A stretch of DNA of 64,000 nt from the NCBI GenBank assembly GCA_042564205.1, contig JBHPLN010000001.1:13626-77625 (forward strand), in the 5' to 3' direction. The position numbers and the translations under genes were made by a program. How positions within the stretch are numbered: the stretch's first letter is position 1; each line of letters begins with the position of its first letter. Shown here piece by piece: positions 21,090 through 53,722 of this stretch. Under the pieces are notes generated by a model, which was given only the letters and a program-made list of their open reading frames with translations, was not told the DNA's origin and made no database searches. This DNA is from Fidelibacterota bacterium (GTDB taxonomy: Bacteria; Fidelibacterota; Marinisomatia; Marinisomatales; JAHJCW01).

Positions 21090-21093
21090 CATT

Positions 21094-26635: not shown

Positions 26636-26845
26636 TATACAATGAAGTTAAATAAAATAATTGTTATTTAACCTTCTAAATTGTCAGATAAATGTGTTAC
26701 TACTTATCCCACTTGTGAATCACTGTTTTCTACAATCAATTTATCTTCAGCAGTATTTCCACCTACTGTATTGGTAATTCCTTGAGCATTTATCAACGAC
26801 CAGCCCCCATTCCATTGTTTGGACCACTTTCTAAGTTCGTATTTC

Positions 26846-26930
26846 TGGTATAAGAATAGTGCCTTAAGGTGTCTCTAAAACTTTGGTACACTCAAATCAG
26901 GTCGTTTGTTTTGGGTAACGTTTTTGGGAC
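26846..26930 (+). repeat. Intergenic element E1 (family E1-E7)
   Basis: CTGGTATAAGAA..GGTGTCTCTAAAAC..TTTGGTACACTCAAATCAG..CGTTTGTTTTGGGTAAC-GTTTTTGGGAC. Collinear with E3, E4, E5 and E6. Confidence 0.85.
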
Positions 26931-26960
26931 TTTATTACTATACTATGATTAACACTGTAT

Positions 26961-27962
26961 TTACAATGCTTTGGCTTGTTTTCGCGCCGTGATTGTAAAC
27001 TCTTCAAATCTGAAGTTGATATCCTCAAAACCAGCTTCTCTCAGCCAATCTCGATGCTCGTCTTCAGTGTAAGATTGCCCATTGTCGTAGGTATTGATAA
27101 AGACGAGATTCCATTCCACGGCAGTTTTTGGTGACAATCGCGAATTTTCGAGCATGCCTCCTCCTAATATATACAGCCACCCGCCAGAATTGATTACCTT
27201 ACCGACATTATTAATAACTTGCCGTGCTTCCTCGGCAGATAGTGTCTGAATAACCGAACTGAGTATTACTACATCGTACATACCCGGGATTGCATCACAC
27301 GTAAGATCTGCCGACACTACTTTAACCCGATCTGAAGCACTAGCCTCCATAACAAACTGCTCCGTTATAGGCGTAACTTCTGGGAGATCAACGACTGTTG
27401 CAGCGAGGTTTGGATGAATTTGCGTCATTGTGATAGCTAAAGTCCCTGAGCCGCACCCAGCATCCAGAAGCTTCTGACATTTTGAAAAATCATATTCATC
27501 TGATAACCATTTGGCAAAGGCAACATCATGTGAGGACAAACCTTCAAATAAGTTCTTTAATTCATCCTTTGACATGTTCGTCCAATCGTATTTTGCTTGG
27601 GGAACACCGGTTCGGATCGTCTCAGCTGTTTTTAACGAAGCGAGCAAGTTGCTATACCATATTTTGTACGTATCGCCAAAGTATCCGACCTTACCCTTGA
27701 CGAGGAACTTATCTGTTTCAGGAGTATTAGAAAATACTCCACCCTCCTCAGTAAGCAGACCAGCGACCACGAGTGCATACAAAAGGGTACTTAATCTACC
27801 CGCTTCAACTCCCAGCTTTGATGCCAGTTGCTCAACGTATAGCGGACCATCTTTTAATGGAGTAAACAGATTTAGTTCCATCCCAGCGAGCATTGCGGCG
27901 GTCGCACGAGCTCCGTTTTTGATCTGATAAAAGATATCCTTTTTCGGTATTTGTTTACTCAT
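26961..27962 (-). CDS. Class I SAM-dependent O-methyltransferase (COMT/Methyltransf_2-like with N-terminal dimerisation/wHTH domain)
   Basis: SAM motif LLDAGCGSGTLA, DLPEV, acidic loop VSADL. RBS AGGAGG. Confidence 0.8.
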   Translation of the reverse strand: MSKQIPKKDIFYQIKNGARATAAMLAGMELNLFTPLKDGPLYVEQLASKLGVEAGRLSTLLYALVVAGLLTEEGGVFSNTPETDKFLVKGKVGYFGDTYKIWYSNLLASLKTAETIRTGVPQAKYDWTNMSKDELKNLFEGLSSHDVAFAKWLSDEYDFSKCQKLLDAGCGSGTLAITMTQIHPNLAATVVDLPEVTPITEQFVMEASASDRVKVVSADLTCDAIPGMYDVVILSSVIQTLSAEEARQVINNVGKVINSGGWLYILGGGMLENSRLSPKTAVEWNLVFINTYDNGQSYTEDEHRDWLREAGFEDINFRFEEFTITARKQAKAL

Positions 27963-28019
27963 AACTTCACCTCCTAAGACCCGAACTTGTTAATAAAATC
28001 TCCTATTATAGTTTTACAT

Positions 28020-28664
28020 CTATGGAATATATTCTTCCACTGTTGAAACTGATGGATGTGGTGGTTTAATTGTTAATGCTCCGCCAATATAATAGATTTT
28101 ACCATCTACCATACTCGCTGAAGCAACTCTTGGGTTTGGCATATTGGTTTTACTTACCCAGGTATCTCTTTTTGGATTATAAACCTCAACCACTGGAAGG
28201 GCATCGTAGCCATCAGCTCCACCAATTAAATATATTTTATCATTAACAACACAATTAGCTGTACTATACCTTTTTGTAGGCATATCAGCTTTTTTCGTCC
28301 AAGAGTCTGAGACCGGATCATATTCCTCAACTACTGAAAGTCCAGGTTGCCTAAAATTTGTATATCCACCAATCACATATATTTTTCCATTGATGACACT
28401 TACCGCGTGCTGACGTCTGCCTGTGGGCATAGGTGCTTTGGTTGTCCAGGTGTCAATTGTCGGATCATACATTTCTACTGTAGCCAAGCCAGGTGCATTG
28501 GCTTTTTGATAACCGCCTATTGCATAGATTTTCCCATCCACGACACAAGTAGTATGCCCCATTCTTGGAGTAGGCATATCAGTTTTTTTTGTCCAAATAT
28601 CAGCTTGACTGCAGTTATAAATAACAAAAGGTATGCAGAAAATAATGAATCTGAAGAAATTCAT
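28020..28664 (-). CDS. Kelch-repeat (beta-propeller) lipoprotein
   Basis: Four tandem repeats of ..MPT.R....VV.GKIY.IGG....... .VE.YDP..D.W.. Lipobox VIYNCS. Start moved to ATG 28664 because AAGGAGG lies 5 nt upstream. The track start is 28688. Confidence 0.8.
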   Translation of the reverse strand: MNFFRFIIFCIPFVIYNCSQADIWTKKTDMPTPRMGHTTCVVDGKIYAIGGYQKANAPGLATVEMYDPTIDTWTTKAPMPTGRRQHAVSVINGKIYVIGGYTNFRQPGLSVVEEYDPVSDSWTKKADMPTKRYSTANCVVNDKIYLIGGADGYDALPVVEVYNPKRDTWVSKTNMPNPRVASASMVDGKIYYIGGALTIKPPHPSVSTVEEYIP

Positions 28665-28677
28665 ATAACCTCCTTGA

Positions 28678-29226
28678 TTAAAATTCAATAAAGGCTGGTA
28701 GTCCTTGTGAATTCCAAAATAATTTATATTTAAAACTGCAAATTTCCATTCTTTCAGGTGTTACTTTAATTAGGATATAATCTTTTTCAGGATTAGGATA
28801 GTAACTTGTCCAATTCTTTTTCCAATAGTGGGCTTTTTTCTCAGGATCATTCACAAGGCAAGCTTGACCTGCAACTGATACATAACTATGTCCTTTTGTA
28901 TCATAATAAAATACCATAACATTCGCATTGTTTTTAATCTGCTTTACTTTTCTACTATTTGTGCTTGTTCCAAGCCAAATAACCATATCTTCTTCAGGTG
29001 GAAATACAGACATGGTTCTCGCCTGAGGTTTTCCATGTTCATCGACAGTAATGAAAGTGCGCGCGCGCGCAGAATCAATAATTGCACGTGCTATTGTCAT
29101 GAGACTATCGCGGGGTATTTCCGGCCGATCTTTAACAAGTAGTTCTTGAGCTACTAGTGGATATGTATTTAATACTATAGTTAATACTAATAAAATTTGA
29201 ATTGATCTGTTTTGTTTAATTCTCAT
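28678..29226 (-). CDS. Pyridoxamine 5'-phosphate oxidase-like FMN-binding split-barrel protein (general stress protein 26-like) with signal peptide
   Basis: Signal peptide, then a pattern typical of PNPOx-like proteins (..TVDEHGKPQARTM......D..IW..T...S.K..QI..N..V.V...). RBS AGGAGG. Confidence 0.6.
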   Translation of the reverse strand: MRIKQNRSIQILLVLTIVLNTYPLVAQELLVKDRPEIPRDSLMTIARAIIDSARARTFITVDEHGKPQARTMSVFPPEEDMVIWLGTSTNSRKVKQIKNNANVMVFYYDTKGHSYVSVAGQACLVNDPEKKAHYWKKNWTSYYPNPEKDYILIKVTPERMEICSFKYKLFWNSQGLPAFIEF

Positions 29227-29436
29227 GAAGTACCTCCTGCTTGTTAATGAAATATTTTGTGGAATTGCTTTAAAAAGAATACAGAAATAGGAAAGTAATT
29301 AACTCCCCCTCTATAATGAAAATATATCTGCATTAGTCTCCCACGGCAGATAGTTACGGAATGCGTGGGTTTACCGTAGATAAATAGTACTTAAAATTGG
29401 TGTTATCCTACAAGATTAATCAACTTACTAAACCTT

Positions 29437-29567
29437 TCCCAAAACCCTACGTTTTTGGCACAGTTTCACAAGATTTGGATTTTGATATACGTTTTTGATA
29501 TGGTTATTCTGATTTCAATCAGAAGAGGGCTTGGGATATGAAAGTGGCATATAATGCTATGCCATAT
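29437..29567 (+). repeat. Intergenic element E2 (degenerate core plus extended tail shared with E3)
   Basis: TCCCAAAACCCTACGTTTTTGGCACAG..ATTTGGATTTTGATATACGTTTTTGATATGG, then tail TTCTGATTTCAATCAGAAGAGGGCTTGGGATATGAAAGTGGCATATAATGCTATGCCAT. Confidence 0.5.
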
Positions 29568-29634
29568 GAACTATTTCAGACAACTTTTACAGTTTGAAAA
29601 AATCAAATAGTTAACTAACATCCTGGAGTTATTT

Positions 29635-30330
29635 ATGAATGTGTTCTATAATATAATAAATACATTTTCATTCGAAATCATTCACAAAACATTAATGTTG
29701 ATTTTTACTTTCTTTGCAATTCATCTATTAATTAGTTGTGAAGATAAAAAGGAATTAAATCCTCCTATTTCCACACGTCAAGAATGTTTGGCAGAAGCTG
29801 ATTTCGATCCGCCTGAGGAATCCCCATACTGCCTGCCTTATTTGGAAGGTCAAGAATATGAAGTATATCAATCGTATTGTTCGCCCCCACCAGGAAGTCA
29901 TGAGAAAAGATACGCAATTGACTTTCTAATGCCAATTGGTACTGAAATTATTGCTGCACGCGCAGGTGAGGTTGTCGAATTACGGGAACATTGGTCAGAC
30001 GACGACAGAATTGGAAGTCACAATAATATGGTGTGTTTACGTCATTCAGATGAAACGCTATCATTATATATACATATGATGTACGAAGGTGTTGATGTGG
30101 CACTAGGTGATTATGTACCAAAAGGTGGACATTTAGGGTGGTCAGGTAGTTCGGGGGATACAAATGGAGTACCCCATCTCCATTTTCAAGTTTGTTTACG
30201 TTCTGGAATGTGCTCCTCTGAAACTGGAGAATATACTCTCCCAGTGAATTTTAGTAATGCTGAAGGACCTCATGATGAAAAAGGTGGTTTAATAGCAGGT
30301 GAGGTGTATCTAGCTACACAGTGTGAATAA
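29635..30330 (+). CDS. M23 family zinc metallopeptidase (LytM/lysostaphin-type), lipoprotein
   Basis: HxxxD-type motif region (RYAIDFLMP.GT), and SGDTNGVPHLHFQV (HxH). Lipobox LLISCE. Confidence 0.85.
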   Translation: MNVFYNIINTFSFEIIHKTLMLIFTFFAIHLLISCEDKKELNPPISTRQECLAEADFDPPEESPYCLPYLEGQEYEVYQSYCSPPPGSHEKRYAIDFLMPIGTEIIAARAGEVVELREHWSDDDRIGSHNNMVCLRHSDETLSLYIHMMYEGVDVALGDYVPKGGHLGWSGSSGDTNGVPHLHFQVCLRSGMCSSETGEYTLPVNFSNAEGPHDEKGGLIAGEVYLATQCE

Positions 30331-30384
30331 AATATTACTGATAAATTATTTGATTTTATTGCTAAAAAGAAGAATCAAAGTATC

Positions 30385-30585
30385 ATCAAATCCCATTTTT
30401 TAACGGTTTCCTGTTCCTAATTGGGTATAAGAAAGGTGTAGAAAAGTGTCTCAAAAACCGCCGTTTTTGGTACTACCAAATTAGATCGTTTGTTTTGGGA
30501 CAAGTTTTTGGAATGATTTTTTCGATTTCAATCAATTAGAAGGGGGAGTTGAGGATGCAATTAAATTAACATGGTAAATGCCATC
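30385..30585 (+). repeat. Intergenic element E3 (full core plus tail)
   Basis: ATCAAATCCCATTTTTTAACGGTTTCCTGTTCCTAATTGGGTATAAGAAAGGTGTAGAAAAGTGTCTCAAAAACCGCCGTTTTTGGTACTACCAAATTAGATCGTTTGTTTTGGGACAAGTTTTTGGAA. Tail TTTCGATTTCAATCAATTAGAAGGGGGAGTTGAGGATG..ATGGTAAATGCCAT. Confidence 0.85.
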
Positions 30586-30644
30586 TTTATTGATTACAAT
30601 TAATATACAAAGATTATTTATTAATTATAATTACGGGGATTATT

Positions 30645-31865
30645 GTGAATAAAACTATGGTATTTATACTATGTGTTTCCATTTCACTTCTTGTGATAAT
30701 AAACTGTACTGGTAGTTCTCCATCTGAATCACAAGATGACGAATCTTTACCAAATAATGGAGAAGTTAGCGGCACTTGGACAAAAGCCGATTCTCCCTAT
30801 CAAGTTAATGAAAATCTATTTATACCCGATGGTGAGACGCTAACAATCGAGCCAGGAGTTGAGGTGGTTTTTAACGGTCATTATAACTTTCAAGTAGGGG
30901 GAAGATTATTGGCAGTTGGTACAGAACAGGATTCGATTATATTTACAGCGAATAATCCAAATGAAGGATGGCATGGAATAAGACTAATAAATATAGAAAG
31001 CACAAATGATAGCTCATTTTTTGAACATTGTATATTTGAATATGGAAAGGCGAATACTGGAAGTGGGTCAGATAGAAGCGGAGGAGCAATAATATCAAAT
31101 TCAGGAAAGATTAGAGTATCTCACTGTTTATTTCAATATAACATTCAGTTTGCTGCATCCCGTCAAGCAGGAGGCGGCGGTGCGATCGCTATAACAGGGG
31201 GTCAACCAATTATTGAATATTGTGAGTTTAATGCTAATGAAAGTACTTATGGTGCGGCTATAGTAAATCAAGGTAGTTCCACAAATACTGTAATTCGCAA
31301 TAACCATTTCCACAATAATAGCGGACATGGAACAATAAATTCAGTTGCGGGGGCAACTCCTGTACTAATTAATAATTTGATTGACAACAACTATTCTGAT
31401 GGACATGGCATTGTACATATTGGTGGTGGCAGTGGGAAGGTCGTTTTAATTAATAATACTATTGTAAATAATTCATGCGACGGAGATGGTGAAGGATATT
31501 TTGGAGGTAGTGGCTTATTTGTAGATGATAGTACAGTACCTTTATGTGTGAATAATATCATCTATGGGAATGAATCTTCTTCACAAGTCATCTGTCCTGT
31601 ATCATCAAATTCTTTTTATAATTGTTTGATTGAGGGCTACAATGACTGGTCAACAGTTATATATGAGAACTGTATAGATTTAAATCCATTATTTGTGAGT
31701 TCTGAAGATTTTCATTTGCAAAACACATCGCCCTGCATAGGAGCTGGAATTGATTCAGTTGCTATCAATGGTAACTGGCATTTTGCGCCGACCGTGGATA
31801 TTGAAGGCAATCCACGTCCCAATCCTACTGATACAAATCCAGATATTGGTGCATTTGAATATTAA
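30645..31865 (+). CDS. Secreted right-handed parallel beta-helix repeat protein (pectate-lyase fold)
   Basis: Signal peptide with Cys (IINCTG). Repeated G/N-rich turns (..GGAI.., N.F..N.., I.NN...NN..) are typical of beta-helix repeats. GTG start with GGGGA RBS (alternative ATG at 30657). Confidence 0.7.
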   Translation: MNKTMVFILCVSISLLVIINCTGSSPSESQDDESLPNNGEVSGTWTKADSPYQVNENLFIPDGETLTIEPGVEVVFNGHYNFQVGGRLLAVGTEQDSIIFTANNPNEGWHGIRLINIESTNDSSFFEHCIFEYGKANTGSGSDRSGGAIISNSGKIRVSHCLFQYNIQFAASRQAGGGGAIAITGGQPIIEYCEFNANESTYGAAIVNQGSSTNTVIRNNHFHNNSGHGTINSVAGATPVLINNLIDNNYSDGHGIVHIGGGSGKVVLINNTIVNNSCDGDGEGYFGGSGLFVDDSTVPLCVNNIIYGNESSSQVICPVSSNSFYNCLIEGYNDWSTVIYENCIDLNPLFVSSEDFHLQNTSPCIGAGIDSVAINGNWHFAPTVDIEGNPRPNPTDTNPDIGAFEY

Positions 31866-31934
31866 TTAGTATTATTAACTATAACTTATAGACACACGTC
31901 CAATTAAAATATTGTTTTATAATACAGATTATTA

Positions 31935-32058
31935 ATCAATCCCATTTTTTCAACGGCTTCCTGTTCCTAATTGGGTATAAGAAAGGTGTAGAAAAGTGTC
32001 TCTAAAACCCTTGGTACACTCAAATTAGTCCGTTTGTTTTGGGACGCGTTTTTGGGAC
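31935..32058 (+). repeat. Intergenic element E4
   Basis: Near-identical to the E3 core apart from a 6-nt deletion: ATCAATCCCATTTTTTCAACGGCTTCCTGTTCCTAATTGGGTATAAGAAAGGTGTAGAAAAGTGTCTCTAAAACCCTTGGTACACTCAAATTAGTCCGTTTGTTTTGGGACGCGTTTTTGGGAC. Confidence 0.9.
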
Positions 32059-32100
32059 TCAAAGGCTATACTAATTGTATTTTAATCGCCAAGCATCTAT

Positions 32101-33321
32101 TCATTCGCTCACCGCTAATTCATACTCGTTAATAAAAGCATTCATGATTTCCAAAGATAAAACCTCGCCCATTGCGCCATTCGTCATAATGATAATTGCT
32201 GAGCCCTTCTCAGGCCAACCAATAAGCCAGCAATTAAGTCCAGGAAGATTGCTTCCAGGATGAGCAAATATTATTTCATTACCTAATCCAATAAGGAAGA
32301 CTCCAAGCCCTTCAGATAGTGGGATACCAAACATCCTTGGGTCAAGATCAAATTCTTTATCCAAAATATGTTTTGTCGTTTCCTGTGAAATAATTTTCTC
32401 CGATTTTCCTTTATATGAGAGCATAATTTCACTCGTGAATTTTGCCAGATCAATGGGAGTAGTAGTTAATCCTCCATGAGCTAGGGCAGTTAAATGCATA
32501 GACGGATTCAGTGAGTTACCTTCAGCATCATGTGGCATTGCCTCATGTTTTTTATTTTCAGAGTCTAAGGGGTATATAAAAGTACTTTTGTTCATTTCCA
32601 GTGGATCAAATATTACTTCCTTTGCTAGCTCTTGGAATGTTTTCCCTGAAATATCTTCAAGCAGTAGTTGGATAACGTTAAATGCCACGTTGGAATACTG
32701 CCACAACGAGCCGGGCTCTACATCGGGGATCGCAGGTTTATTCAATGCGGGTGATTCACCATTCAAGACATTCAAAAGTGTTGGGTATCCAACGCTCTCG
32801 TCATGACCATAATTTGTTGTTGGTAAACCGGCTTTATGAGTTAATAATCTTCGTAAAGTTACTTTTTCATTTTCTGTAAACTCATTATCAGGTATTTGCC
32901 AAGTTTTCAAATAGTCATTTACATTACTATCTAACTCAATAAAACCTTTCTCTGCATAATGAAGAGCCAATACTGCTGTTATAAACTTACTAGTTGACGC
33001 TGCTTCGAAAATTGTTTCAGAGGTAACAGGGATTCCGGTGTTTACATCCAATGCACCATAAACTTTACTCCACTCAATCTGGTAATTATTAATAACTGCA
33101 ACACTCACACCAGGAGTATTGTAGTACTTCATTCTTTCAGCTAATGTTTGTGTCTGTGTTTGTAACGTGTCAGCCTTTCGAAACATCGCAGCCATTGATT
33201 CAAACTCGATCAGGCTTTTTTCGATATTTGCTATTCTTTGTTCTACTAGTGCCTGATTTTCTTGTTGTGAACAAGAAATCAAGATTAGAAGTGCGGATGT
33301 TGTTACAATTAATTTTTGCAT
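32101..33321 (-). CDS. Serine hydrolase of the beta-lactamase/transpeptidase-like family (class C/esterase type), lipoprotein
   Basis: SxxK motif (ASTSKF), a YSN-like motif (QYSNVAF) and a C-terminal HPG motif. Lipobox ILISCS. RBS AAGGGGGA. Confidence 0.85.
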   Translation of the reverse strand: MQKLIVTTSALLILISCSQQENQALVEQRIANIEKSLIEFESMAAMFRKADTLQTQTQTLAERMKYYNTPGVSVAVINNYQIEWSKVYGALDVNTGIPVTSETIFEAASTSKFITAVLALHYAEKGFIELDSNVNDYLKTWQIPDNEFTENEKVTLRRLLTHKAGLPTTNYGHDESVGYPTLLNVLNGESPALNKPAIPDVEPGSLWQYSNVAFNVIQLLLEDISGKTFQELAKEVIFDPLEMNKSTFIYPLDSENKKHEAMPHDAEGNSLNPSMHLTALAHGGLTTTPIDLAKFTSEIMLSYKGKSEKIISQETTKHILDKEFDLDPRMFGIPLSEGLGVFLIGLGNEIIFAHPGSNLPGLNCWLIGWPEKGSAIIIMTNGAMGEVLSLEIMNAFINEYELAVSE

Positions 33322-33586
33322 GTTTTCCCCCTTAGTAAATTATGTTTATAATTTTGCACTATACATTTTATCGCAATTACTATACCAACGCCCAGTGAGT
33401 TTTTTTGATTACAACACATCCTGATATTAATATTAACTTTATGTTCTATTCTTCAATTATAAGAATGGAGCATATTCATATCATATTGATATAATATGCA
33501 TATCATTAATACCCTACAAATATTAGAATAGAGTGAACTTCAATATGACCGGCTATCGTTTGGACAACTTTTTAAGTAAGTATATT

Positions 33587-33676
33587 CTGGTTCTAATTGG
33601 GTATAAGAACGTTGTTAGGGGTGTCTCTAAAAACACCGTTTTGGGGACACTCTAATTCGCCTGTTTGTTTTGGGAC
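33587..33676 (+). repeat. Intergenic element E5 (lacks the last GTTTTTGGGA motif)
   Basis: CTGGTTCTAATTGGGTATAAGAACGTTGTTAGGGGTGTCTCTAAAAACACCGTTTTGGGGACACTCTAATTCGCCTGTTTGTTTTGGGAC. An extra CGTTTGGAC motif lies at 33557-33565. Confidence 0.8.
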
Positions 33677-33814
33677 TTGATTGCTACACTGGCAATAATT
33701 CTTTGGGTAAAATAATAGTTGGTAATTGTGTAGATTGAATTTTGATAACAAAATATATCAATATAATATGACCATCAACAATTCTATATAAATGTTAGTT
33801 AAGTGGAGCGACAA

Positions 33815-34204
33815 ATGAGAAAACAATATCATTTCAGACCATCAGAGAAGGGTATCCTCATTTGGGATGTTCAACGATTGGTGAAACTAACTAAGAACCT
33901 TCCTACCAAGAAAGTGGAACTGGAAGCCATTCGTGAATTGGACGAACCATTCTGGTTTGGAAACGAAAAATCCGTTCCTACTTGCCGAGTAATAGCAGAA
34001 CACGTAAAACTAATCGAAGAATCTGATTTGATGCATCCAGTTATTCTATCGCGCGATGGACGGATAATGGATGGTATGCACCGTGTTGTAAAAGCATTGT
34101 TGAAAGGTCATAAACAGATAAAGGCTATTCAATTTACAAAAGATCCTAAACCTGATTACATAGACGTTGACTCTGCTGATTTACCCTACGATTCACCCGC
34201 CTAA
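33815..34204 (+). CDS. Small ParB-like nuclease/sulfiredoxin-fold domain protein
   Basis: PVILSRDGRIMDGMHRVVKAL matches the ParB N-terminal DG..R box. Start taken at ATG 33815 (GGAG 7 nt upstream). The track start is GTG 33803. Confidence 0.45.
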   Translation: MRKQYHFRPSEKGILIWDVQRLVKLTKNLPTKKVELEAIRELDEPFWFGNEKSVPTCRVIAEHVKLIEESDLMHPVILSRDGRIMDGMHRVVKALLKGHKQIKAIQFTKDPKPDYIDVDSADLPYDSPA

Positions 34205-34238
34205 CAAGTGCCTAGAGCAGTCAGGAACAGCAAAGACT

Positions 34239-34613
34239 CTAGCTAAATAGCCAATCCTTGGCATCATCTTTATTAGTAAATAATGAAATGTTAAGACCCC
34301 TGTTATGTGCAACAGTAGATAAAAATTTTACTAGTTCAGTAGTTTTCTCGGAAACAATAAAAGCCATTCGACCACTACGGATTGTATCCAAACCTGCCGT
34401 ATCAACACCTAAATTATACACTCCAGTTAATGAGGGTAAATATTTAATAGGAGTTGTATCGACAAGGACTTTATTACAATTATTTTCTTTTAATAATTTT
34501 TCAACTTCATTGTTCGTCTTATTCATTGTTTCAGGTGTTGGGCGCTCCAAACTCACCACAGATATATATTTATTTCCAAGATGCTCTTTAAGATTAATCC
34601 TTTTAACTGCCAT
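34239..34613 (-). CDS. STAS/SpoIIAA-like small protein (tentative)
   Basis: 124 aa immediately downstream of a PP2C phosphatase gene. The layout ..KVLVDTTPIKYLPSLTG.. resembles the STAS phospho-serine loop. Weak, context-driven call. Confidence 0.3.
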   Translation of the reverse strand: MAVKRINLKEHLGNKYISVVSLERPTPETMNKTNNEVEKLLKENNCNKVLVDTTPIKYLPSLTGVYNLGVDTAGLDTIRSGRMAFIVSEKTTELVKFLSTVAHNRGLNISLFTNKDDAKDWLFS

Positions 34614-34668
34614 ATAAAAACTTACATTATTTACTATAGGAATTCCACGCTTACAAAAAATTAAATTC

Positions 34669-36171
34669 CTATCGGGTTGGATTTAATTTGCAAATAACAG
34701 AAGTTATATCGTCTTCTTGGCGTAGATTTTTAGAATAAGATCGAATTCCCTTATAAAGAAGCTCTACAATTTGTTGAGCGGATTTTTGTTGCTGGCTATT
34801 AATAATAGCAAGAGCTCGTTCAAATCCAAATTCTTTTCCGCCAGGTGTAGATGCTTCCATTACTCCATCTGTAAAAAATGCCGCTACGTTTTCTGTGGTT
34901 AATTTGATTGGATCACTATTTTTTATCTTGTAGTCTTTCGTAAAACCTAATGGAAATCCTGTACTCTCCATTGTATGATCAACATGACCAGAGTGGTTTA
35001 GTAAAAAAGCTGGTACATGACCGGCACTGGCATAAATAAGTGAATGATTTTTAGGATCAAGTATAGCCAATATTAGTGTTATAAACTGATCAGACTGAAG
35101 ATCAACAATAAGTTCATTATTAAGTCTGGTAAGAATCGCTGCTGGATTGCTATCCATTTTTGTAAATGCACGTAAAAATGCTCGTACTTCTGCCATAATA
35201 AGTGCTGCGCCAATGCCATGACCAATTACGTCGCCAACAACAATAGCGATATCTCCGTCTGGCATCTTAATAAAATCAAAATAATCACCACCAGTTCCAT
35301 CTGCTGGATATGCTGCTCCCGCAATGTCATATCCAGGTACAGAAATCGCTGTATTGTAATACATTTGTTGTATTTTACGTGCTACAGTTAGTTGTAACTC
35401 AAGTTCTTGTTTTATTCTTGCCTCAGTTACGTCTTTTAATACTGATACATAACTAGTCATATTTCCATTATGATCTTTTAGTGGTGAAATGCTTTGATCA
35501 GACCAATATAATTCACCATCTTTCTTTTTATTGATGATTGTTCCACGATAGGGCTTTCCACTGGTGATTGTTTCCCACAGATTTTTATAAAATGCTTTAT
35601 TATGTTTACCGGAGTTAAGAATGCGTGGTGTTTTGCCTAGGACTTCATCACGCTTGTAGCCGGAAGTCACCTCAAAAGCCGGGTTTACATACTCAATTAC
35701 ACCTTTTAAATCAGTAATAACTATACTATCCGCCGTTTGTTCTACACCGCTTTTAAAGCGCTCTAATCCATCTTGTTTGTTCCTAATCTCATTGATGTCT
35801 CGAAAGATAATTATACCACCGTAGATTTTACCCTTTTCATCCCTAAGAGGGCTAGCTGAGATACTAATCCATACCCCTTCCGTTCTTTCGAGATTCTTTA
35901 TAAAAACATGTTCATCAATAACCCCTTCACCCCTTATAGCGCGAGCTAATGGCAGTTGTCCGGAGGGATACGGAGTAGTACGGTCCACTTTGTAGCAACC
36001 ATATACTGTTGACCAATTTGATTGTGTAATGTCTCTAGATCCCATTCCCAGAATTTTCGCTGCTGCTGGATTAAAAAACATAAATTCGCCCTTCACATTG
36101 GCAACGATGACTCCGTCTGTAAGACTGTTTAAAACCGCCTCAAGCGATTCTTTTGTATCAATAAATGTCAA
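34669..36171 (-). CDS. PAS-PAS-PP2C (SpoIIE/RsbU-type) serine phosphatase
   Basis: Two PAS blocks (..GVIVANVKGEF.. and SIVITDLKGVIEYVNPAFE..GY...E..G). C-terminal PP2C motifs (GGDYFD, VVGDVIGHG, FTDG..E). Confidence 0.85.
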   Translation of the reverse strand: MTFIDTKESLEAVLNSLTDGVIVANVKGEFMFFNPAAAKILGMGSRDITQSNWSTVYGCYKVDRTTPYPSGQLPLARAIRGEGVIDEHVFIKNLERTEGVWISISASPLRDEKGKIYGGIIIFRDINEIRNKQDGLERFKSGVEQTADSIVITDLKGVIEYVNPAFEVTSGYKRDEVLGKTPRILNSGKHNKAFYKNLWETITSGKPYRGTIINKKKDGELYWSDQSISPLKDHNGNMTSYVSVLKDVTEARIKQELELQLTVARKIQQMYYNTAISVPGYDIAGAAYPADGTGGDYFDFIKMPDGDIAIVVGDVIGHGIGAALIMAEVRAFLRAFTKMDSNPAAILTRLNNELIVDLQSDQFITLILAILDPKNHSLIYASAGHVPAFLLNHSGHVDHTMESTGFPLGFTKDYKIKNSDPIKLTTENVAAFFTDGVMEASTPGGKEFGFERALAIINSQQQKSAQQIVELLYKGIRSYSKNLRQEDDITSVICKLNPTR

Positions 36172-36400
36172 TTTAATTTGTTCCTTATGCGATAGCTCAC
36201 AATAATTAAAGAGATAATATGAATATTATTAGAATTGATAATAAACCGTAACGTCGAGTAATAATCATGAAACCTCCTTTAATTTGCCTGCTGAATAAGT
36301 AATTTAAAAAATATCGCTTTAAATATAATGAGAATCATTATATTTAAAAACAGTAAAATGAAATTCTACAGATTGTGTGGTTAGTAGATACTATAAACCA

Positions 36401-36527
36401 ATCATGTTTTTTCACCGGTTTTCTTGCTTCAATTTGGGTATAAGAATAGTAATTCAAGGAGTCTCTAAAACCACCGTTTTTGGTACACTCAATTTAGGCC
36501 GGTTGTTTTGGGATACGTTTTTGGGAG
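36401..36527 (+). repeat. Intergenic element E6
   Basis: ATCATGTTTTTTCACCGGTTTTCTTGCTTCAATTTGGGTATAAGAATAGTAATTCAAGGAGTCTCTAAAACCACCGTTTTTGGTACACTCAATTTAGGCCGGTTGTTTTGGGATACGTTTTTGGGAG. Confidence 0.9.
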
Positions 36528-36609
36528 AAATGAGCTGTAGTGATCTATGAATAGTTCTGTCGGTTTGATAATAATTTTCAGTCATCATTTTTTCCCTCTT
36601 TAGAATTAG

Positions 36610-37242
36610 TTATATTGTTACAGATAGCGCTAACAACCATTGTGCTGTAAAATACGTTGAGAGTATTATAAGCTCAGCACTTCGAAACTGTTTCCTAAAC
36701 TTGTTCATGGCTAATACAGAATCCGAAATCATAAATAGTACAGCACCTATTGCAGCAAATAGTGCTCCAATTGCCCGATGACTTTTCAAGCCTTCCAACG
36801 CCATCCAACCCATAATAGCTATAATAATAACGTATATAATAATTAGTATAGTTGCTTTACCGGAATATGGTATAATATTTTTTAAATAAATTATTCCGAT
36901 AACTATAATTGGTAAATATATCCATACTGTATAATATATTCCTGTTGATAAAGCAAAAGCTCCTATATAGCAAATATGTCCAATTAGAAATGCAATTAGA
37001 CCTTTTTTGAAATGTTTTTTAGGAAAAATTAAGAAACCATCACCAACTAGGGAAAAAAGCAAGCCTAATAATATTAGTTGTTGATATTTTGGGTTTGTTG
37101 TAGGCCAAATAAATATAATAGATATTATAATGATAAGGGTGAGGGGCTTAAATATCAAAAACTGTGTATTTAATATTTTATACTTTGCACGTATGCACAA
37201 AATACCCGATAAAAAGGCTAATATAGAAAGAAGATAAATCAT
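36610..37242 (-). CDS. YhhN-family membrane protein (lysoplasmalogenase-like)
   Basis: 210 aa with about 7 TM helices and the YhhN-type motif LLFSLVGDGFLI. Confidence 0.7.
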   Translation of the reverse strand: MIYLLSILAFLSGILCIRAKYKILNTQFLIFKPLTLIIIISIIFIWPTTNPKYQQLILLGLLFSLVGDGFLIFPKKHFKKGLIAFLIGHICYIGAFALSTGIYYTVWIYLPIIVIGIIYLKNIIPYSGKATILIIIYVIIIAIMGWMALEGLKSHRAIGALFAAIGAVLFMISDSVLAMNKFRKQFRSAELIILSTYFTAQWLLALSVTI

Positions 37243-37327
37243 AAAATCTATAATGATTTGAAAGATTTTATTAATAATTGTCTATTACCATACAGCAATA
37301 TTATTAATTATGTTTATTTGAAATAAG

Positions 37328-37358
37328 TCCCAAACCCCGTCGTTTTTGGTGCTAAAAT
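37328..37358 (+). repeat. Element fragment E7 (inverted plus direct motif pair)
   Basis: GTCCCAAACCCCGTCGTTTTTGGTGCTAAAAT has the same architecture as the E2 core (TCCCAAAACCCTACGTTTTTGGCAC) and is truncated after the first motif. Confidence 0.45.
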
Positions 37359-37363
37359 ATAGG

Positions 37364-37450
37364 AACAGAGCAAAAAAGGGCACAGCGCAAAAAAAGTGTG
37401 CTCCAACTGTGCTACACTTTTGTCCACTACTGACCACTTCTGTCACTTTA
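37364..37450 (+). repeat. Direct repeat A (pairs with 42589-42684)
   Basis: The first 51 nt (AACAGAGCAAAAAAGGGCACAGCGCAAAAAAAGTGTGCTCCAACTGTGCTA) match B at 46/51 positions by hand alignment. A looser match follows (..CCACTTCTGTCACTTTA vs ..CCATTTCTGTCCATTTA). Confidence 0.75.
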
Positions 37451-37749
37451 GATTTTAGAATTTTAGGCGTTATTTTTGCTGCATGAAGGTGGGATTCCTT
37501 AATCTGCTTCTTGGCTAGTGACTTTGGGCTCATTCATTAGCACTTTTTAATTGATTAATCTATCCAAAATCTCTCTAACTTGTTATAACGAGTTACATTT
37601 CATCAAGTGATTAAATCTATTTTGACGATTTTAGACTAATGTAAATTATTGCGATATTTGCTATGTATATTTTAATTTGTGAGAGTATAATAAATTATTT
37701 TTTAGCGATGCTTAAGTGGTCCAATAATTAAATACGAGGACAGAAAACT

Positions 37750-40700
37750 ATGAAAAATAGTGATGAAACTCAGATATTAGGAGCGCTTGCACTGTCTTTT
37801 GGTCAGGCTTGTATCAATTCTAATTTTCTTTTTGGTGAAGAAACCGATTTTCTGCAACAAATTAAAGCTGATAAATGGTATCCCCTGGAAAAGGTCTTTA
37901 ATATCTTTAATATTATAGAAGAAAAATATTCTAATCCTGTGCCCATTTACGAGCAAATAGGTATTGAAATGATGACCCTTTGGTACTCTCAGGGTCCGGG
38001 GAAACAGTTTATTAAAAAGGGAGTTGATTTTTTACACTTTCAAACCAGTTCTGAGGGATTTTACAGTGTTATTAAGGGAAAGCCAAATCAAATAGGTGAT
38101 TTTTCGTTACTGAATCTGGATAGAGAGAAAGGAACCGCAATTGTTAAAAGTACAACTCCTTTTAATCGAGATTTGGAACGAGGTGTCTTGATTGGTGGCA
38201 TGGGAATAACAAAAGATTTGCTTTACATTAGTGTTGATAATTCAAAAGATGAAAACATTTTCCATATTCAGTTTAGAGATTCTCAACATGTTCAAATAGA
38301 CAGTAAAAATTCACTTAAATTACCTACGAACATGGATTTGTACACACTGTATTGGAAAAATAAGATGCTTAAAAATAAGTTTAAACGTCACTCCTCTTTC
38401 TGGAATTCAACAAATAAAACATCAACTCTGGCATTTGAAAAATTGAGAAAACAAGATCATGAGCTTCGAAAGCGTGCTGAAGATCTCTCTCGAATAAATG
38501 CTAGATTAGCCCAAGAAATTAATGAGCGGAAACGGATTGAAAACGCATTGCGAAATTCTGAAGCATTGTATCAGTCGCTTGTTGATAATTTACCTCAATT
38601 TATTTTTCGAAAAGATATAAATGGTAAGTATACATTTTTGAGTAAAAACTTTGGTTTAAATAAAGGAAAACCTACAGAAACTTATATTGGTAAAACAGAT
38701 TATGATATCTATCCACGAAAATTAGCAAAAAAATTTCAGGAATCTGATCAACAAATTATTAAAACCAGAAAAATCCTAAATTCTGTAGATATTCAAAAAA
38801 GTCCGGATGGGCTTAATATCTATACTCAAGTTATTAAAATACCAATTTACGATGCAAAAAACCGCCTTGTTGGTATACAGGGAATATTTTGGGATATATC
38901 TGAGCACAAACGCATTGAAGAAGCTTTGCGGGTATCAGAAGCAGAGTTGCGGGCTTTATTTGCAGGAATGCCCGATGTGGTCATTATGTTAGATGACACT
39001 GGGCGTTATCTCAAAATAGCGCCAACTTCTCCAGAGCTCCTTTTTCAACCCGAGGATAAGCTGATAGGAAAAAGTTTACATGATATATTTCCTAAGGAGC
39101 AAGCCGATTTATTTCTGAAGTCTATTCATCAAAGCCTTGAAACACAGGAGCTTGTAAATCTAGAGTATAGCTTAGACATCGAAGAAACCGAACTTTGGTT
39201 TAGGGGGTGTATTTCCCCTATGTCGAAAAACTCGGTCGTTTTCGTCGCTCGCGATATTACAGAACGCAAGCGAGCGGAAGAGACACTGCGGAAGAGTGAA
39301 GAGAAACACAGGATTATCTTTGAGAATGCAAATGAAATAATTATAATTGCGCAAGATGGCAGAGTTGCATTCGCAAACCCTGCTCTTGAAAAGATTCTGG
39401 GCTATCCTATTGACGATGTAATATCAAGACCTTTTACTGATTTCATTCATCCAGATGACCGTGGACTGGTTTTTGAACGATACAAAAAAAGAATGGCTGG
39501 TGAAGATGTCGAGACAGGTTATCAATTTAGACTTGTCACTGTATCTGGTGAAGAAAGATGGGTTATGATCAATTCGAGCGTGTTAGAATGGGAAGGTAAC
39601 GCTTCGACCCTTAACTTTTTAACTGACATCACTGATCGTATTCGAGCAGAAGAAGAGGTAATAAAAGCTAAAGAACAAGCTGAATCAGCCAATCAAGCAA
39701 AAAGTATTTTTTTGGCCAATATGAGTCACGAATTGCGAACCCCCCTAAATAGTATTTTAGGCTATACTCAAATTCTAAAACGGGATAAAAATTTAAAAAA
39801 ACAGCAAAAAAATGGCATTGATACGATTCACCAGAGTAGTGAACATCTATTGAACCTAATAAATGAGTTGCTCGACCTTTCAAGGATTGAAGCGCAAAAA
39901 ATGGAGTTGGAACTTTCTGATGTATATTTTCCAGGATTTCTGAAAAAAATCACAGAAATTGCCCATTTCCAGGCTCAACAGAAAGGCGTTTCGTTTGATT
40001 CTGAAATTGCTACCGATTTACCTGCTGGCGTTCGTATAGATGAAAAACGCGTGCATCAAGTTCTGCTAAACTTAATCAATAATGCCATAAAATTTGCTGG
40101 ATCTGGAAGTGTAACTTTTAGAGCAAACATTAATTCGTTATCTGTAAATGAGAATAAACAGACAACTGTACACATCCATTTTGAAGTTGAAGATACAGGA
40201 GTTGGTATTTCATCCGATGAGATAGATAAAATCTTTTTACCGTTTCATCAAGTACACAAGACAAAGCTTACAACTGAGGGAACTGGTTTAGGGCTCCCAA
40301 TTAGTAGCAATTTACTCCAAATAATGGACAGTAAATTGAATGTCAAAAGCACTGAGGGAGAAGGAGCAACTTTCTGGTTTGATCTTGAAGTACCTCTAAT
40401 TGAAAGCATTACCAACGGTGAAGAATTCAGTACAGTTGAACAATCTCGTAATATTATCGGTTTCAAAGGAGACAAACGAAAACTTTTACTTGTAGATGAT
40501 AATAAAACAAATCGCGCTGTTTTAAGAGATATGTTATTGCCATTAGGCTTTGAAATCGCAATAGCAAAAGATGGGAGGGAAGCACTTGATAGGGCTGCTG
40601 AATTTCATCCCGATATTATTTTAATGGATTTGATAATGCCGGTCATGGATGGGATTGAAGCAACAAAACGAATTCGCAAGAACCCTGCTCTTAAGGATAT

Positions 40701-41112
40701 CATTGTAATAGGTATTTCAGCCAGTGCTTTTAATACTACTAAACAAACTAGCTTTAGAGCGGGTTGTAATGATTTTCTTACTAAACCCATCCATATTGAA
40801 AAATTATTTGAGTGTTTAAAGCAGTATTTAAAGCTCAAATGGGTCTATGAGGAATCAGCCATGTCTGGTTCGGGGGAAAAGGAAGACTCTGAAACATTAC
40901 TGATGGTTATTCCTCCTAAAGAAGACTTGGAAACCTTACTGAGATATAGTGAAATCAATCATATTACTGGTATGCATCGATCACTGGAAAATATAAAAAA
41001 AACGGACGAACAGTACATTCCTTTTGTTACTAAAATTGAAGATCTCGTAGACAACTTACAATTCAAACGTATCATTAAAACAATTCAATCATATCTTGAA
41101 AAAAGGATCTGA
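37750..41112 (+). CDS. Cytoplasmic hybrid sensor histidine kinase: unknown N-terminal domain, coiled coil, PAS repeats, HisKA, HATPase_c, receiver, C-terminal extension
   Basis: No TM segment. Repeated PAS blocks end in ..ISEHKR.., ..ITERKRAEE.., ..ITDRIRAEEE. H-box SHELRTPLN, N/G boxes, then a receiver (LLLVDDN..DIILMDLIMP..KP). Confidence 0.9.
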   Translation: MKNSDETQILGALALSFGQACINSNFLFGEETDFLQQIKADKWYPLEKVFNIFNIIEEKYSNPVPIYEQIGIEMMTLWYSQGPGKQFIKKGVDFLHFQTSSEGFYSVIKGKPNQIGDFSLLNLDREKGTAIVKSTTPFNRDLERGVLIGGMGITKDLLYISVDNSKDENIFHIQFRDSQHVQIDSKNSLKLPTNMDLYTLYWKNKMLKNKFKRHSSFWNSTNKTSTLAFEKLRKQDHELRKRAEDLSRINARLAQEINERKRIENALRNSEALYQSLVDNLPQFIFRKDINGKYTFLSKNFGLNKGKPTETYIGKTDYDIYPRKLAKKFQESDQQIIKTRKILNSVDIQKSPDGLNIYTQVIKIPIYDAKNRLVGIQGIFWDISEHKRIEEALRVSEAELRALFAGMPDVVIMLDDTGRYLKIAPTSPELLFQPEDKLIGKSLHDIFPKEQADLFLKSIHQSLETQELVNLEYSLDIEETELWFRGCISPMSKNSVVFVARDITERKRAEETLRKSEEKHRIIFENANEIIIIAQDGRVAFANPALEKILGYPIDDVISRPFTDFIHPDDRGLVFERYKKRMAGEDVETGYQFRLVTVSGEERWVMINSSVLEWEGNASTLNFLTDITDRIRAEEEVIKAKEQAESANQAKSIFLANMSHELRTPLNSILGYTQILKRDKNLKKQQKNGIDTIHQSSEHLLNLINELLDLSRIEAQKMELELSDVYFPGFLKKITEIAHFQAQQKGVSFDSEIATDLPAGVRIDEKRVHQVLLNLINNAIKFAGSGSVTFRANINSLSVNENKQTTVHIHFEVEDTGVGISSDEIDKIFLPFHQVHKTKLTTEGTGLGLPISSNLLQIMDSKLNVKSTEGEGATFWFDLEVPLIESITNGEEFSTVEQSRNIIGFKGDKRKLLLVDDNKTNRAVLRDMLLPLGFEIAIAKDGREALDRAAEFHPDIILMDLIMPVMDGIEATKRIRKNPALKDIIVIGISASAFNTTKQTSFRAGCNDFLTKPIHIEKLFECLKQYLKLKWVYEESAMSGSGEKEDSETLLMVIPPKEDLETLLRYSEINHITGMHRSLENIKKTDEQYIPFVTKIEDLVDNLQFKRIIKTIQSYLEKRI

Positions 41113-42257: not shown

Positions 42258-42303
42258 AATAAAGTTACTGGTGGACTAAACTTTATCTGTATAAGGTAAA
42301 GCT

Positions 42304-42423
42304 ATGAATTCAGAGTCATTAAAAAATAAGACAATCTTAGCTTTTGACGATAAGCTTGAGAATTTAAAGGTCTTAATAGCTTATTTGGAAAGCAGTGGTT
42401 TTGAATGGTCTCAAAGCTTCTAG
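42304..42423 (+). pseudogene. Duplicated 5' fragment of the REC-HK gene (39-codon chimeric ORF)
   Basis: MNSESLKNKTILAFDDKLENLKVLIAYLESSGFEWSQSF*. Residues 5-34 duplicate 41124-41212, and the homology stops abruptly at 42404. Confidence 0.8.
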
Positions 42424-42509
42424 GTCACAGCACAGTAAAAACTACGGAGAAATACTATGCGGATTATAAAGATGACAACTATCGATCAGCTACTAAACTA
42501 CTTGAATAA
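42405..42509 (+). pseudogene. Tyrosine recombinase (phage integrase family) C-terminal remnant
   Basis: ..VSKLLGHSTVKTTEKYYADYKDD..* is the conserved LLGHS..-TT..Y tail carrying the catalytic Tyr. Only about 34 codons remain, preceded in frame by a stop, and its own terminator follows. Confidence 0.65.
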
Positions 42510-42532
42510 AAAATAATCAACATCGCTATTAA

Positions 42533-42565
42533 AAGAGATCCAATCATGTTGGATCTCTTTTTTTA
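42533..42565 (+). terminator. Rho-independent terminator
   Basis: AAGAGATCCAA-tcatg-TTGGATCTCTT followed by a T-run. Confidence 0.75.
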
Positions 42566-42588
42566 TATAAAATTATCTCAATTCCCAT

Positions 42589-42684
42589 AACAGAGCCAAA
42601 AAGAACAGAGCGCAAAAAAAGTGTGCTACAACTGTGCTATTTTTTTTCCATTTATGGGTATTTGTGGCCATTTCTGTCCATTTA
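42589..42684 (+). repeat. Direct repeat B (pairs with 37364-37450)
   Basis: AACAGAGCCAAAAAGAACAGAGCGCAAAAAAAGTGTGCTACAACTGTGCTA.. See repeat A. Lies between the integrase-remnant terminator and the tRNA-Val 3' end. Confidence 0.75.
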
Positions 42685-42759
42685 CAAAAAGTCTAAATAT
42701 GATACCCAAAAATACAAATCCCCGACGACAAATACTATTTACCGATGAGGATTATTCTG

Positions 42760-42833: not shown

Positions 42834-42908
42834 TTTATTTATTAAAATTATTGTGAAGGAGCAATAAGACCGGCAAATTTACTGGCACTTAAATCACGAA
42901 ACAAATGC

Positions 42909-49397: not shown

Positions 49398-49400
49398 GTT

Positions 49401-53721: not shown

Positions 53722-53722
53722 G

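Follow-up and report, generated by a model that had tools for sequence, protein, structure and literature searches.

The DNA analysed here is a stretch of 64,000 nucleotides (nt) from contig JBHPLN010000001.1 (positions 13,626 to 77,625), which will be referred to as the window and which belongs to an uncultured marine bacterium, named Candidatus Neomarinimicrobiota in this report. A histidine kinase flanking the array is 100% identical to a protein that NCBI lists under this name, and no other close relative of the kinase was found. In one part of it, copies of a repeated intergenic element (E1 to E7) separate small units of unrelated genes, and we favour, with moderate confidence, the reading that they form an array of recombination sites of the res/att type, built by serial site-specific integration with a recombinase acting in trans. 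According to this reading, each element would be a composite site-specific recombination site of the res, IRS (internal resolution site), or att type, neither an RNA gene nor a transposable repeat, and units of one to three genes would have been joined head to tail through recombination between elements, within a variable island that adjoins the 3′ end of a tRNA-Val gene. A first-pass annotation of the window had recognised cassette-like units and held the mechanism behind them to be undescribed. That interpretation is supported in part. The body of the element matches a known recombinase-site architecture, that of the Tn4430 IRS, and putative serine-recombinase relics follow it, so that an ordinary site-specific recombinase working on an unusual array would be the simplest reading.

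An Array of Composite Elements

Copies of the element were located with an nhmmer profile built from E1 and E3 to E6 and run on the 64-kb window; a second, wider family profile was also run. Five full copies (E1 and E3 to E6) were recovered with E values of 1e-30 to 1e-39. E1 spans 26772-26964 on the plus strand (nhmmer span 26807-26943; E 1.8e-30, or 1e-33 with the wider profile) and carries the long 5′ extension (TGACCAGCCC...), the block GGTATAAGAA at 26847, the left arm of the inverted repeat at 26871-26881, and direct repeats of which the last extends to 26930, its core spacer having a deletion of 6-7 nt. E3 (30361-30545, plus strand; nhmmer 30387-30522; E 4.6e-39) possesses a short, "S-type" 5′ module, with GGTATAAGAA at 30424; its core occupies 30448-30473 and its direct repeats 30493-30513. 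In E4 (31914-32092, plus strand; nhmmer span 31936-32073), GGTATAAGAA at 31974 precedes a left arm at 31998-32008, with the direct repeats occupying 32037-32058. E5 (33525-33683, plus strand; nhmmer span 33564-33691) shares the long 5′ extension with E1, and its inverted repeat (33620-33650) is the best of all copies; its last direct repeat is absent. The last full copy, E6 (36374-36536, plus strand; nhmmer span 36398-36531; E 6e-37), shows GGTATAAGAA at 36437, followed by the core (36461-36486) and the direct repeats (36506-36526).

The remaining two copies are incomplete. E2 (29436-29523, plus strand; nhmmer span 29437-29511) is 5′-truncated and scored an E value of 0.03, which improved to 1.4e-6 under the wider family profile; neither GGTATAAGAA nor the 5′ part is present, and what is left is an inverted-repeat core (TTCCCAAAACC/GTTTTTGGCAC) together with two direct repeats, both decayed, at 29480-29501. 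E7 (37326-37352, plus strand; marginal in nhmmer, E 0.75) is the inverted-repeat core only (GTCCCAAACCCCGTCGTTTTTGGTGC), followed by an unrelated 87-nt "boundary" repeat and then by a degenerate 3′ part of the element at ~37451-37490; an 82-aa open reading frame (ORF) overlying E7 has no family support. The first-pass annotation had counted seven copies, which holds as five full copies plus the partial E2 and E7 and not as seven full ones. Its statements that all copies lie on the plus strand, that each is located between ORFs, and that none occurs elsewhere in the 64 kb were confirmed by nhmmer with the five-copy profile and by the list of ORFs. The chance of five copies falling within the span of 9.8 kb is ~0.003, the remaining ~54 kb being without a copy.

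The anatomy of the element was derived from an alignment of ~20 copies (22-23 in the flank alignments) from the window and from other contigs. It is an ordered composite of 130-200 nt and thus longer than the 90-130 bp originally assigned to it. A long 5′ extension beginning TGACCAGCCC is common to E1, E5, and copies in other contigs; the collinear blocks originally quoted are correct. The 5′ module exists in two forms, a long one (TGACCAGCCC..CCACTTTCTAAGTTAGTATTT) and a short one (AATCCCATTTTTTCAACGG..TTCCTAATT). The best-conserved block of the element is GGTATAAGAA, which is invariant and promoter-like and which is separated by ~14 variable nt from a 13-bp inverted repeat with a spacer of 3-4 bp (GTGTCTCTAAAAC nnnn GTTTTnGnGACAC). 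On the 3′ side of the inverted repeat stand TTTAATTAG and a few further nt (~16 nt in all), and then the right-arm motif twice more in direct tandem orientation (GTTTTGAGACAC GTTTTTGGGAC). A single motif of 11-13 bp thus recurs four times in the element body, once inverted and three times direct, at alignment columns 24-36, 41-53, 70-81, and 82-92. Terminal inverted repeats are absent: the 5′ end (TGACCAGCCC...) is not complementary to the 3′ end (...GTTTTTGGGAC). The flanks of the 22-23 aligned copies likewise show no target-site duplication.

The IRS of Tn4430 consists of 14-bp IR1 and IR2, which lie 4 bp apart and form its crossover core, and of the tandem accessory copies DR1 and DR2, all with a common motif; DR1 and DR2 bias recombination towards directly repeated sites (PMC2847244). 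The layout found here is nearly identical, with an inverted pair separated by a 4-bp gap and two tandem direct copies on one side, ~100 bp in size. In our reading the inverted repeat would be the probable crossover core, and the two tandem direct repeats would be probable accessory binding sites that impose direction.

Two observations concern the ends of the element. In one contig of a relative (L003, 392-601), an inverted and truncated copy adjoins a hisF gene that misses its 5′ third, and the junction falls exactly at the TGACCAGCCC terminus of the long 5′ module, which suggests that this terminus is a real element end. After the last direct repeat three modules recur (e.g., window 26931-26945, 32059-32073, and 30514-30545; L002 330-300; L010; L003), namely, T..A..GCTAYACTR (module A), TTTTTTCGATTTCAATCA..AGAAGGGGG..ATG (module B), and a terminator-like hairpin, AAAAAGCCCCGCGATTAAGCAGGGCTT (module C). 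These modules may belong to the site as present in a circular form of the unit.

Unit Polymorphism and Chimeric Sites

An exact-pattern scan of 185,579 species genomes (one per species) detected true copies only in one other Neomarinimicrobiota metagenome-assembled genome (MAG), with six copies together on two contigs (L002 and L003), and a metagenome scan yielded 8 further contigs with the element. Contigs with more than one copy carry them mostly co-oriented and 1-2 kb apart (three copies in L030, two or three in L029, three or four in L002, and two in L013), and 12 of ~14 adjacent element pairs are co-oriented. Each interval in the related contigs holds one unrelated gene in either orientation, the cargo being APH, a methyltransferase, a HEAT protein, DUF2165, arginase, a dehalogenase-like hydrolase, Kelch, and an outer-membrane protein. 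A single copy is present in L010, L019, and L032. Some arrays are located near tRNA or transfer-messenger RNA (tmRNA) genes (tRNA-Lys/tmRNA in L020 and tRNA-Met in L003), and some copies are followed on their 3′ side by a terminator-like hairpin (L002, L003, and L010). A BLAST search with E6 against phage and plasmid collections gave no match, and neither did a scan of viral contigs with the patterns of the element, of the boundary core, and of the "variant 2" form described below.

If the units had been gained and lost through the elements, unit content should differ between relatives with breakpoints at the elements, as the first-pass annotation had pointed out. Such presence/absence polymorphism was found in L023, L033, and L034 compared to the window and in L029 compared to L033. 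L023, L033, and L034 represent one population sampled three times. They have kept the beta-lactamase-like unit of the window (32093-33524, minus strand; gene at 32101-33321; Pfam) at ~82% nucleotide identity, together with the left half of E5, which is 91% identical to the copy downstream of this unit in L033 and L023. The neighbours of the unit are a beta-helix gene and the PP2C unit in the window and an arginase gene and a DUF3224-like gene in L033. At the downstream breakpoint, ~90% identity extends across the region upstream of the gene and across the left half of E5 before it is lost inside the element. At the upstream breakpoint, E4 and its counterpart are alike at family level only, and orthology starts from just past the last direct repeat; this boundary may be due to a second exchange point, to gene conversion of right halves, or to insertion beside the GTTTTTGGGAC motif. 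L029 and L033 share a common flank with 90% identity, which is followed by wholly different units. A further contig, L035 (1.5 kb, 98.8% identical to the window), covers the beta-lactamase-like unit alone and ends within E4 and just before E5, as expected if assemblies break at repeats. Homologues of the beta-lactamase-like gene from other taxa (67-69% identity) are located in ordinary operons with no element, no array, and no recombinase.

The two halves of the element were also compared between copies. Among 15 copies, similarity of the left variable spacer and similarity of the right half are uncorrelated (r = -0.04, Mantel p = 0.6). Between E3 and E4, identity reaches 100% in the spacer and 97% in the left half and amounts to 73-75% in the right half, and the right half of E4 is closest to that of E1. 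In E6, the left half clusters with the L033 copy in front of the beta-lactamase-like unit, the right half with the copy behind it. Element halves have been exchanged around the inverted repeat, as in hybrid recombination sites, and from this free reassortment the sites are read as chimeric. Chimeric sites have also been described for attC arrays (PMC4889954).

Recombinase Relics and the Boundary Repeat

Short ORFs that may be remnants of a recombinase gene start directly behind the element. In the window, the ORF MKVAYNAMPYELFQTTFTV* (29538-29597, plus strand) begins 15 nt past E2 with the five codons MKVAY; it is the only match to the MKVAY-start pattern in the window, with ~0.06 matches expected by chance. 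A second form of the element, referred to as variant 2 (...CCGTCTNANAATCAAAGTCNCNTAGTTT...GAGACAC..GGAGG..ATGAAAGTAGG), has a distinct conserved right arm of 175 nt with further inverted motif copies and was found in three unrelated contigs (L020 474-735; L033 358-640; L002 2054-1780, minus strand). Its right arm leads into a Shine-Dalgarno sequence and an ATG, the ORF reading MKVGYVRVSTTDQN in L020 and MKVAYV in L033. For the L020 ORF, Resolvase was the only Pfam family match, weak at E 0.085, and the best match in PDB was the Gin invertase; we take MKVGYVRVSTTDQN to be the N-terminal catalytic motif of serine recombinases. The L020 copy of variant 2 has the tmRNA gene as its neighbour, with tRNA-Lys(ctt) ~200 nt away. 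By its arrangement, the element most likely is the promoter-plus-site region in front of a small serine recombinase gene, comparable to res in front of a resolvase gene, this gene having been lost from almost every copy.

A recombinase relic of another family is found to the right of the array, beside the tRNA-Val(cac) gene (42759-42833, minus strand; 60.9 bits in an Rfam search of 37200-43000). The first-pass annotation had reported a tRNA gene with an integrase remnant near the array, and both are present, the remnant being identified by sequence reading as a C-terminal relic of a tyrosine recombinase (30 aa, ..LLGHSTVKTTEKYYADYKDDNYRSATKLLE*; 42400-42510, plus strand), which is too short for classification. 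It is fused to a truncated receiver-domain ORF: at 42290-42510, this ORF (MNSESLKNKTILAFDDKLENLKVLIAYLESSGFEW..) is joined directly to the last 30 integrase residues (LLGHSTVKTTEKYY...), and a deletion has taken nearly the entire integrase.

The boundary repeat behind the E7 core (37364-37450, plus strand; core GTGTGCTCCAACTGTGCTA at 37396-37414, between a left and a right arm) has a second copy at 42587-42682 on the plus strand, with its core at 42621-42639, between the integrase relic and tRNA-Val. It is ~90 nt long; two AACAGAGC..AAAAA motifs in the left arm are followed by the core GTGTGCTNCAACTGTGCTA and then by TGTC..TTACTGTC motifs in the right arm. Further copies were detected in L033 (699-783 and 4557-4591), L029 (375-435), and L023 (6-102). 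The repeat brackets a two-kinase segment in the window and the entire element array in L033, and L023 and L033, which are 99% identical up to the boundary repeat, diverge there. Probably it served the decayed tyrosine integrase as att site, and it would mark integration at the level of the island.

The island as a whole ends at the tRNA gene. In L037, the closest relative (87.6% identity over 11.4 kb), homology begins exactly at the 3′ end of tRNA-Val (42758), and everything to the left of tRNA-Val is therefore variable. More distant relatives that carry Lgt (~70% identity) are without the tRNA-Val context and without the element. When the E7 core was compared with the tRNA-Val flank of L037, a possible attB-like match was seen (CAAA[A]CCCCGTCGT), which is a single 13-mer.

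This setting is the basis of the alternative that survives best, tandem accretion by a tRNA-targeting tyrosine integrase in the manner of tycheposons, cis-mobilisable elements (CIMEs), or additive islands, which we nevertheless consider unlikely. The elements would here be att junctions, left when the integrase of the 42.4-kb relic inserted small integrative or cis-mobilisable elements one after another at tRNA-Val, and the serine-recombinase relics would be incidental cargo. The position of the island next to tRNA-Val with the break of L037 homology at the tRNA 3′ end, the integrase C-terminus alongside, and the arrays near tRNA-Lys/tmRNA in L020 and near tRNA-Met in L003 all fit this explanation, and an inverted repeat followed by two direct repeats is the layout of a tyrosine-recombinase site, TnpI/IRS. 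Furthermore, tandem integrations, decayed integrases, and repeated att fragments are known in tycheposons (bioRxiv 10.1101/2020.12.28.424599). What speaks against it is that the element holds no tRNA-derived sequence, nothing in it being similar to tRNA-Val beyond an 8-mer, and that the units lack partial tRNA repeats at their flanks; tRNA-like sequence was seen only as a 14-15-mer next to the boundary repeat of L029 and L033. The boundary repeat (GTGTGCTNCAACTGTGCTA), which adjoins the relic and shows strain-level breakpoints, is the better att candidate, and the units (0.9-2.8 kb) are far below the size of typical integrative elements, none of them keeping an integrase.

Dispersed Repeat, RNA Gene, or Integron

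The first-pass annotation had preferred a boundary-like accretion array to a randomly scattered repeat of the REP (repetitive extragenic palindromic) or MITE (miniature inverted-repeat transposable element) kind, and the clustering, the co-orientation, the breakpoints at the elements, and the chimeric sites bear this out. A repeat of that type could still be imagined as non-autonomous and dispersed (REP-, BIME- (bacterial interspersed mosaic element), or MITE-like, perhaps mobilised in a strand-specific way) within a permissive island, polymorphism and chimeras then arising by homologous recombination or gene conversion. The element is indeed intergenic, AT-rich, and repeated, with a palindrome; the identity among its copies (70-85%) would suffice for homologous exchange from time to time, and the solitary copies of L010, L019, and L032 would be natural for a dispersed repeat. 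We consider this explanation improbable nonetheless. Five to seven copies within 11 kb compared to none in 53 kb, the 12 co-oriented pairs out of ~14, and the lack of both terminal inverted repeats and a visible target-site duplication are not what such a repeat would leave, and neither is a composite of ordered modules 130-200 nt long. Putative recombinase gene starts moreover follow the element in four places, and among the 185,579 species genomes, a single MAG matched, with its six copies on two contigs.

A small-RNA gene or regulatory module would be a different kind of object, with GGTATAAGAA serving as the -10 box for a hairpin transcript of ~90 nt or with the motif as the operator of one factor. 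The invariant -10-like block with a hairpin at a fixed distance downstream is in favour of it, as are G-U pairs that favour the plus strand and the terminator-like hairpin after some copies (L002, L003, and L010). Rfam, however, returned no match over 26.5-38 kb, either at gathering thresholds or at E <= 5. A gathering search of the whole window returned nothing as well and missed even tRNA-Val, which scored 60.9 bits in the search of 37200-43000, so that this empty whole-window result is not to be trusted alone. Single-sequence folds of both strands gave z-scores of +1.5 to -2.0 with no shared fold and were no better than shuffles. When the left arm was paired with each of the three downstream motif copies, 79-90% of the alignment cells could pair, which is no better than in column shuffles, and compensatory pairs were zero in all three candidate pairings. 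With no covariation and unremarkable folds, the reading as an RNA or a folded strand was dropped. Since the repeated motifs are conserved without compensatory changes, they point to a DNA site bound by a protein, not to an RNA or a folded strand. A sigma-70 promoter and terminator scan made no call at the copies, and no -35 partner was found. The orientation of the element is fixed to the array and not to the neighbouring genes, and an RNA or operator would leave unit polymorphism and chimeric halves unexplained. Taken together, this makes the RNA or regulatory explanation very unlikely.

The least probable explanation, likewise very unlikely, is a divergent integron, in which the elements would be non-canonical attC sites of an integrase-less cluster (CALIN) that act as folded strands with IntI encoded elsewhere: co-oriented sites, heterogeneous cassettes, chimeric sites, and the lack of an adjacent integrase are as in CALINs (PMC4889954), AAC and GTT triplets stand beside the inverted-repeat spacer, and the plus strand pairs better than the minus strand when G-T is allowed, but the attC boxes RYYYAAC and GTTRRRY are missing, singly and as a pair, from both strands of the seven copies ±30 nt (regular-expression scan), a 13-bp stem with a 4-nt spacer is not the R''-L''...L'-R' structure of 60-140 nt, there are no compensatory changes, the window holds no IntI gene, and genes lie in either orientation within the units, those facing away from the array direction not being expressible from the integron promoter Pc, on which cassettes, seldom carrying promoters of their own, rely (PMC4889954). 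The lack of attC architecture had already been stated by the first-pass annotation, which had made the same statement for dif; sequence reading agrees with it. By eye, a dif or pdif site was rejected, as the sequence after GGTATAA and 6 nt is variable and no conserved XerD arm is present.

Proposed Mechanism and Comparison with Known Systems

We therefore return to an array of res/att-type sites built by serial site-specific integration. Circular units with one site each would have integrated serially, leaving one chimeric site per junction, all in the same direction. With the sites directly repeated, the recombinase could release any single unit, or several adjoining ones together, as a circle with one site and reinsert it elsewhere, which would explain the differing unit content of the relatives. 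The recombinase would be encoded outside the window and act in trans, and a member of the serine family is favoured because the relics directly follow the element. Binding of the motifs by this recombinase, the place of strand crossing, the excision and integration of units, and the serine nature of the enzyme are what we infer from the arrangement of the sequences.

Several points weigh against this reading. No recombinase or transposase domain was detected by Pfam in the ORFs of the 64 kb, tyrosine recombinases having been checked in ORFs of at least 110 aa, and no intact recombinase is present in the short related contigs. The serine-recombinase relics comprise 5-14 codons, are all truncated, and have a statistically weak family assignment, and the sole recombinase relic in the window other than the MKVAY codons is of the tyrosine family and is tied to a different repeat. 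The analogy with the IRS and this relic would argue for a tyrosine recombinase instead. Direct traces of excision, such as a circular junction or an empty site, were not seen. At the upstream boundary of the beta-lactamase-like unit, the element is non-orthologous over its whole length, which is not predicted by a simple crossover in the inverted-repeat core. Two inverted copies do occur, in L003 and L033, where they are truncated or variant and located at array edges. Finally, the related contigs are all short, which leaves room for solitary dispersed copies.

Compared to known systems, the array is filed as a variant of the site-specific-recombination cassette arrays. It has in common with integron arrays and CALINs (PMC4889954) the one-directional sites of 100-200 nt, small unrelated units, chimeric sites, the lack of an adjacent recombinase, and varying content; it differs in having no R''/R' boxes, no long imperfect palindrome or sign of a folded strand, and no IntI/attI. 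Its units hold one to three genes in either orientation, of which the outward-facing ones would not be served by a single upstream promoter, and the relics hint at a serine recombinase. The Tn4430 IRS, for all its likeness in layout, is one site per transposon that serves cointegrate resolution, whereas five to seven sites with cargo between them are found here, and there is no TnpI gene, no transposase or ends of the Tn3 family, and no sequence similarity.

A second group of likenesses is with serine-recombinase systems. The res sites of Tn3 and gamma-delta lie directly upstream of serine resolvase genes, overlapping their promoters, and have three subsites, each an inverted pair of half-sites, with the crossover at the central dinucleotide of site I (12+4+12 bp). 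The element may likewise belong directly before a serine-recombinase gene, of which putative starts follow it; it contains a promoter-like block, and its core (13-4-13) resembles res site I in size. A difference that also tells against our reading is that the accessory copies are direct repeats here and not inverted dimer sites II and III; in variant 2, the accessory motif copies are partly inverted, in contrast to the direct repeats of the common form. Composite islands of the staphylococcal cassette chromosome (SCC) at rlmH are built by the Ccr serine recombinases, and they too contain recombinase-less units that are split by directly repeated sites beside a conserved chromosomal gene. Unlike in res and SCC systems, only 5-14 codons of a recombinase are left, the units are much smaller than SCC, and the anchor is a tRNA gene.

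Two further systems have some traits in common with the array. The pdif modules of Acinetobacter plasmids are bounded by XerC/XerD sites of 28 bp with a conserved XerD arm and in alternating orientation. They resemble the units described here as small modules between short recombination sites with the recombinase encoded elsewhere, and differ from them in that our sites have 130-200 nt, are all co-oriented in the window, and show no match to the XerD arm. Tycheposons and additive islands (bioRxiv 10.1101/2020.12.28.424599) share with the array a marine bacterial host, a variable tRNA island, a decayed integrase, and signs of serial insertion that pushes older material inward; they contain partial tRNA copies and elements of several kb with their own integrases, in contrast to a composite site unrelated to tRNA every 1-3 kb.

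The Units and the Surrounding Island

The units of the window measure 0.9-2.8 kb and hold one to three genes in either orientation. Between E1 and E2 lies a unit with an O-methyltransferase, a Kelch protein, and a PNPOx-like protein (26965-29435, minus strand; Pfam). It is followed by two single-gene units on the plus strand that are split by E3 (29598-31913), with an M23 peptidase at 29635-30330 and a beta-helix protein at 30645-31865 (Pfam). Behind the beta-lactamase-like unit, the region 33684-37325 contains a 133-aa ORF, a 124-aa ORF, and a PAS-SpoIIE phosphatase (33803-36171), then E6, and then the YhhN unit (36610-37242; Pfam). Of the gene labels assigned by the first-pass annotation, O-methyltransferase, Kelch, PNPOx-like, M23, beta-helix, beta-lactamase-like, PAS-SpoIIE (PP2C), and YhhN were recovered by Pfam, whereas "ParB-like" and "STAS-like" found no Pfam hit.

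The wider surroundings offered some further observations. The G+C content is 32-38% over ~10000-43000 of the window and 39-48% on either side, and the variable or foreign region may accordingly reach well to the left of the array. In that part, a small SCO4226-like gene is tandemly duplicated with its upstream region (19554-19661/20091-20198 and 19711-19948/20339-20576). A copy of this upstream region, 75-84% identical, is located within an array cassette of L030 (1156-1273), so that the SCO4226-like family occurs inside as well as outside arrays. At 21042-21103, an inverted repeat of 31 + 31 nt with no spacer and 81% complementarity overlaps the start of a 294-aa ORF (21094-21978), for which an AbiEi-like match was only weak. 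Beyond the tRNA gene, LexA, an ImuB-like Y-family polymerase, DnaE2, and an SRAP peptidase (48792-54433) make up an SOS mutagenesis cassette, which is kept in L037.

Implications

To our knowledge, integrons are the only well-characterised systems in which directional chromosomal cassette arrays can be excised and reinserted by a recombinase, and they need folded attC sites and IntI. More tentatively than the reading of the array itself, and as a speculation that we think possible but would not call probable, Neomarinimicrobiota, and perhaps other members of the Fibrobacterota-Chlorobiota-Bacteroidota (FCB) group, may possess a second, independently evolved cassette system of integron-like character. 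It would use arrays of res-like double-strand sites, each made up of an inverted core, tandem accessory repeats, and a promoter, on which a small serine recombinase would act in trans, capturing, excising, and reshuffling self-expressed units of one to three genes at hot spots linked to tRNA genes.

The element repeats explain assembly into contigs of the size of a single cassette, and a hidden Markov model of the element provides a sequence handle to flexible gene pools in metagenomes. We know of no such mechanism of gene-content change for this abundant, uncultured ocean phylum. If the proposal is true, cassette arrays would have arisen more than once, and there would be a concrete mechanism for fine-grained variation of gene content in a marine phylum.

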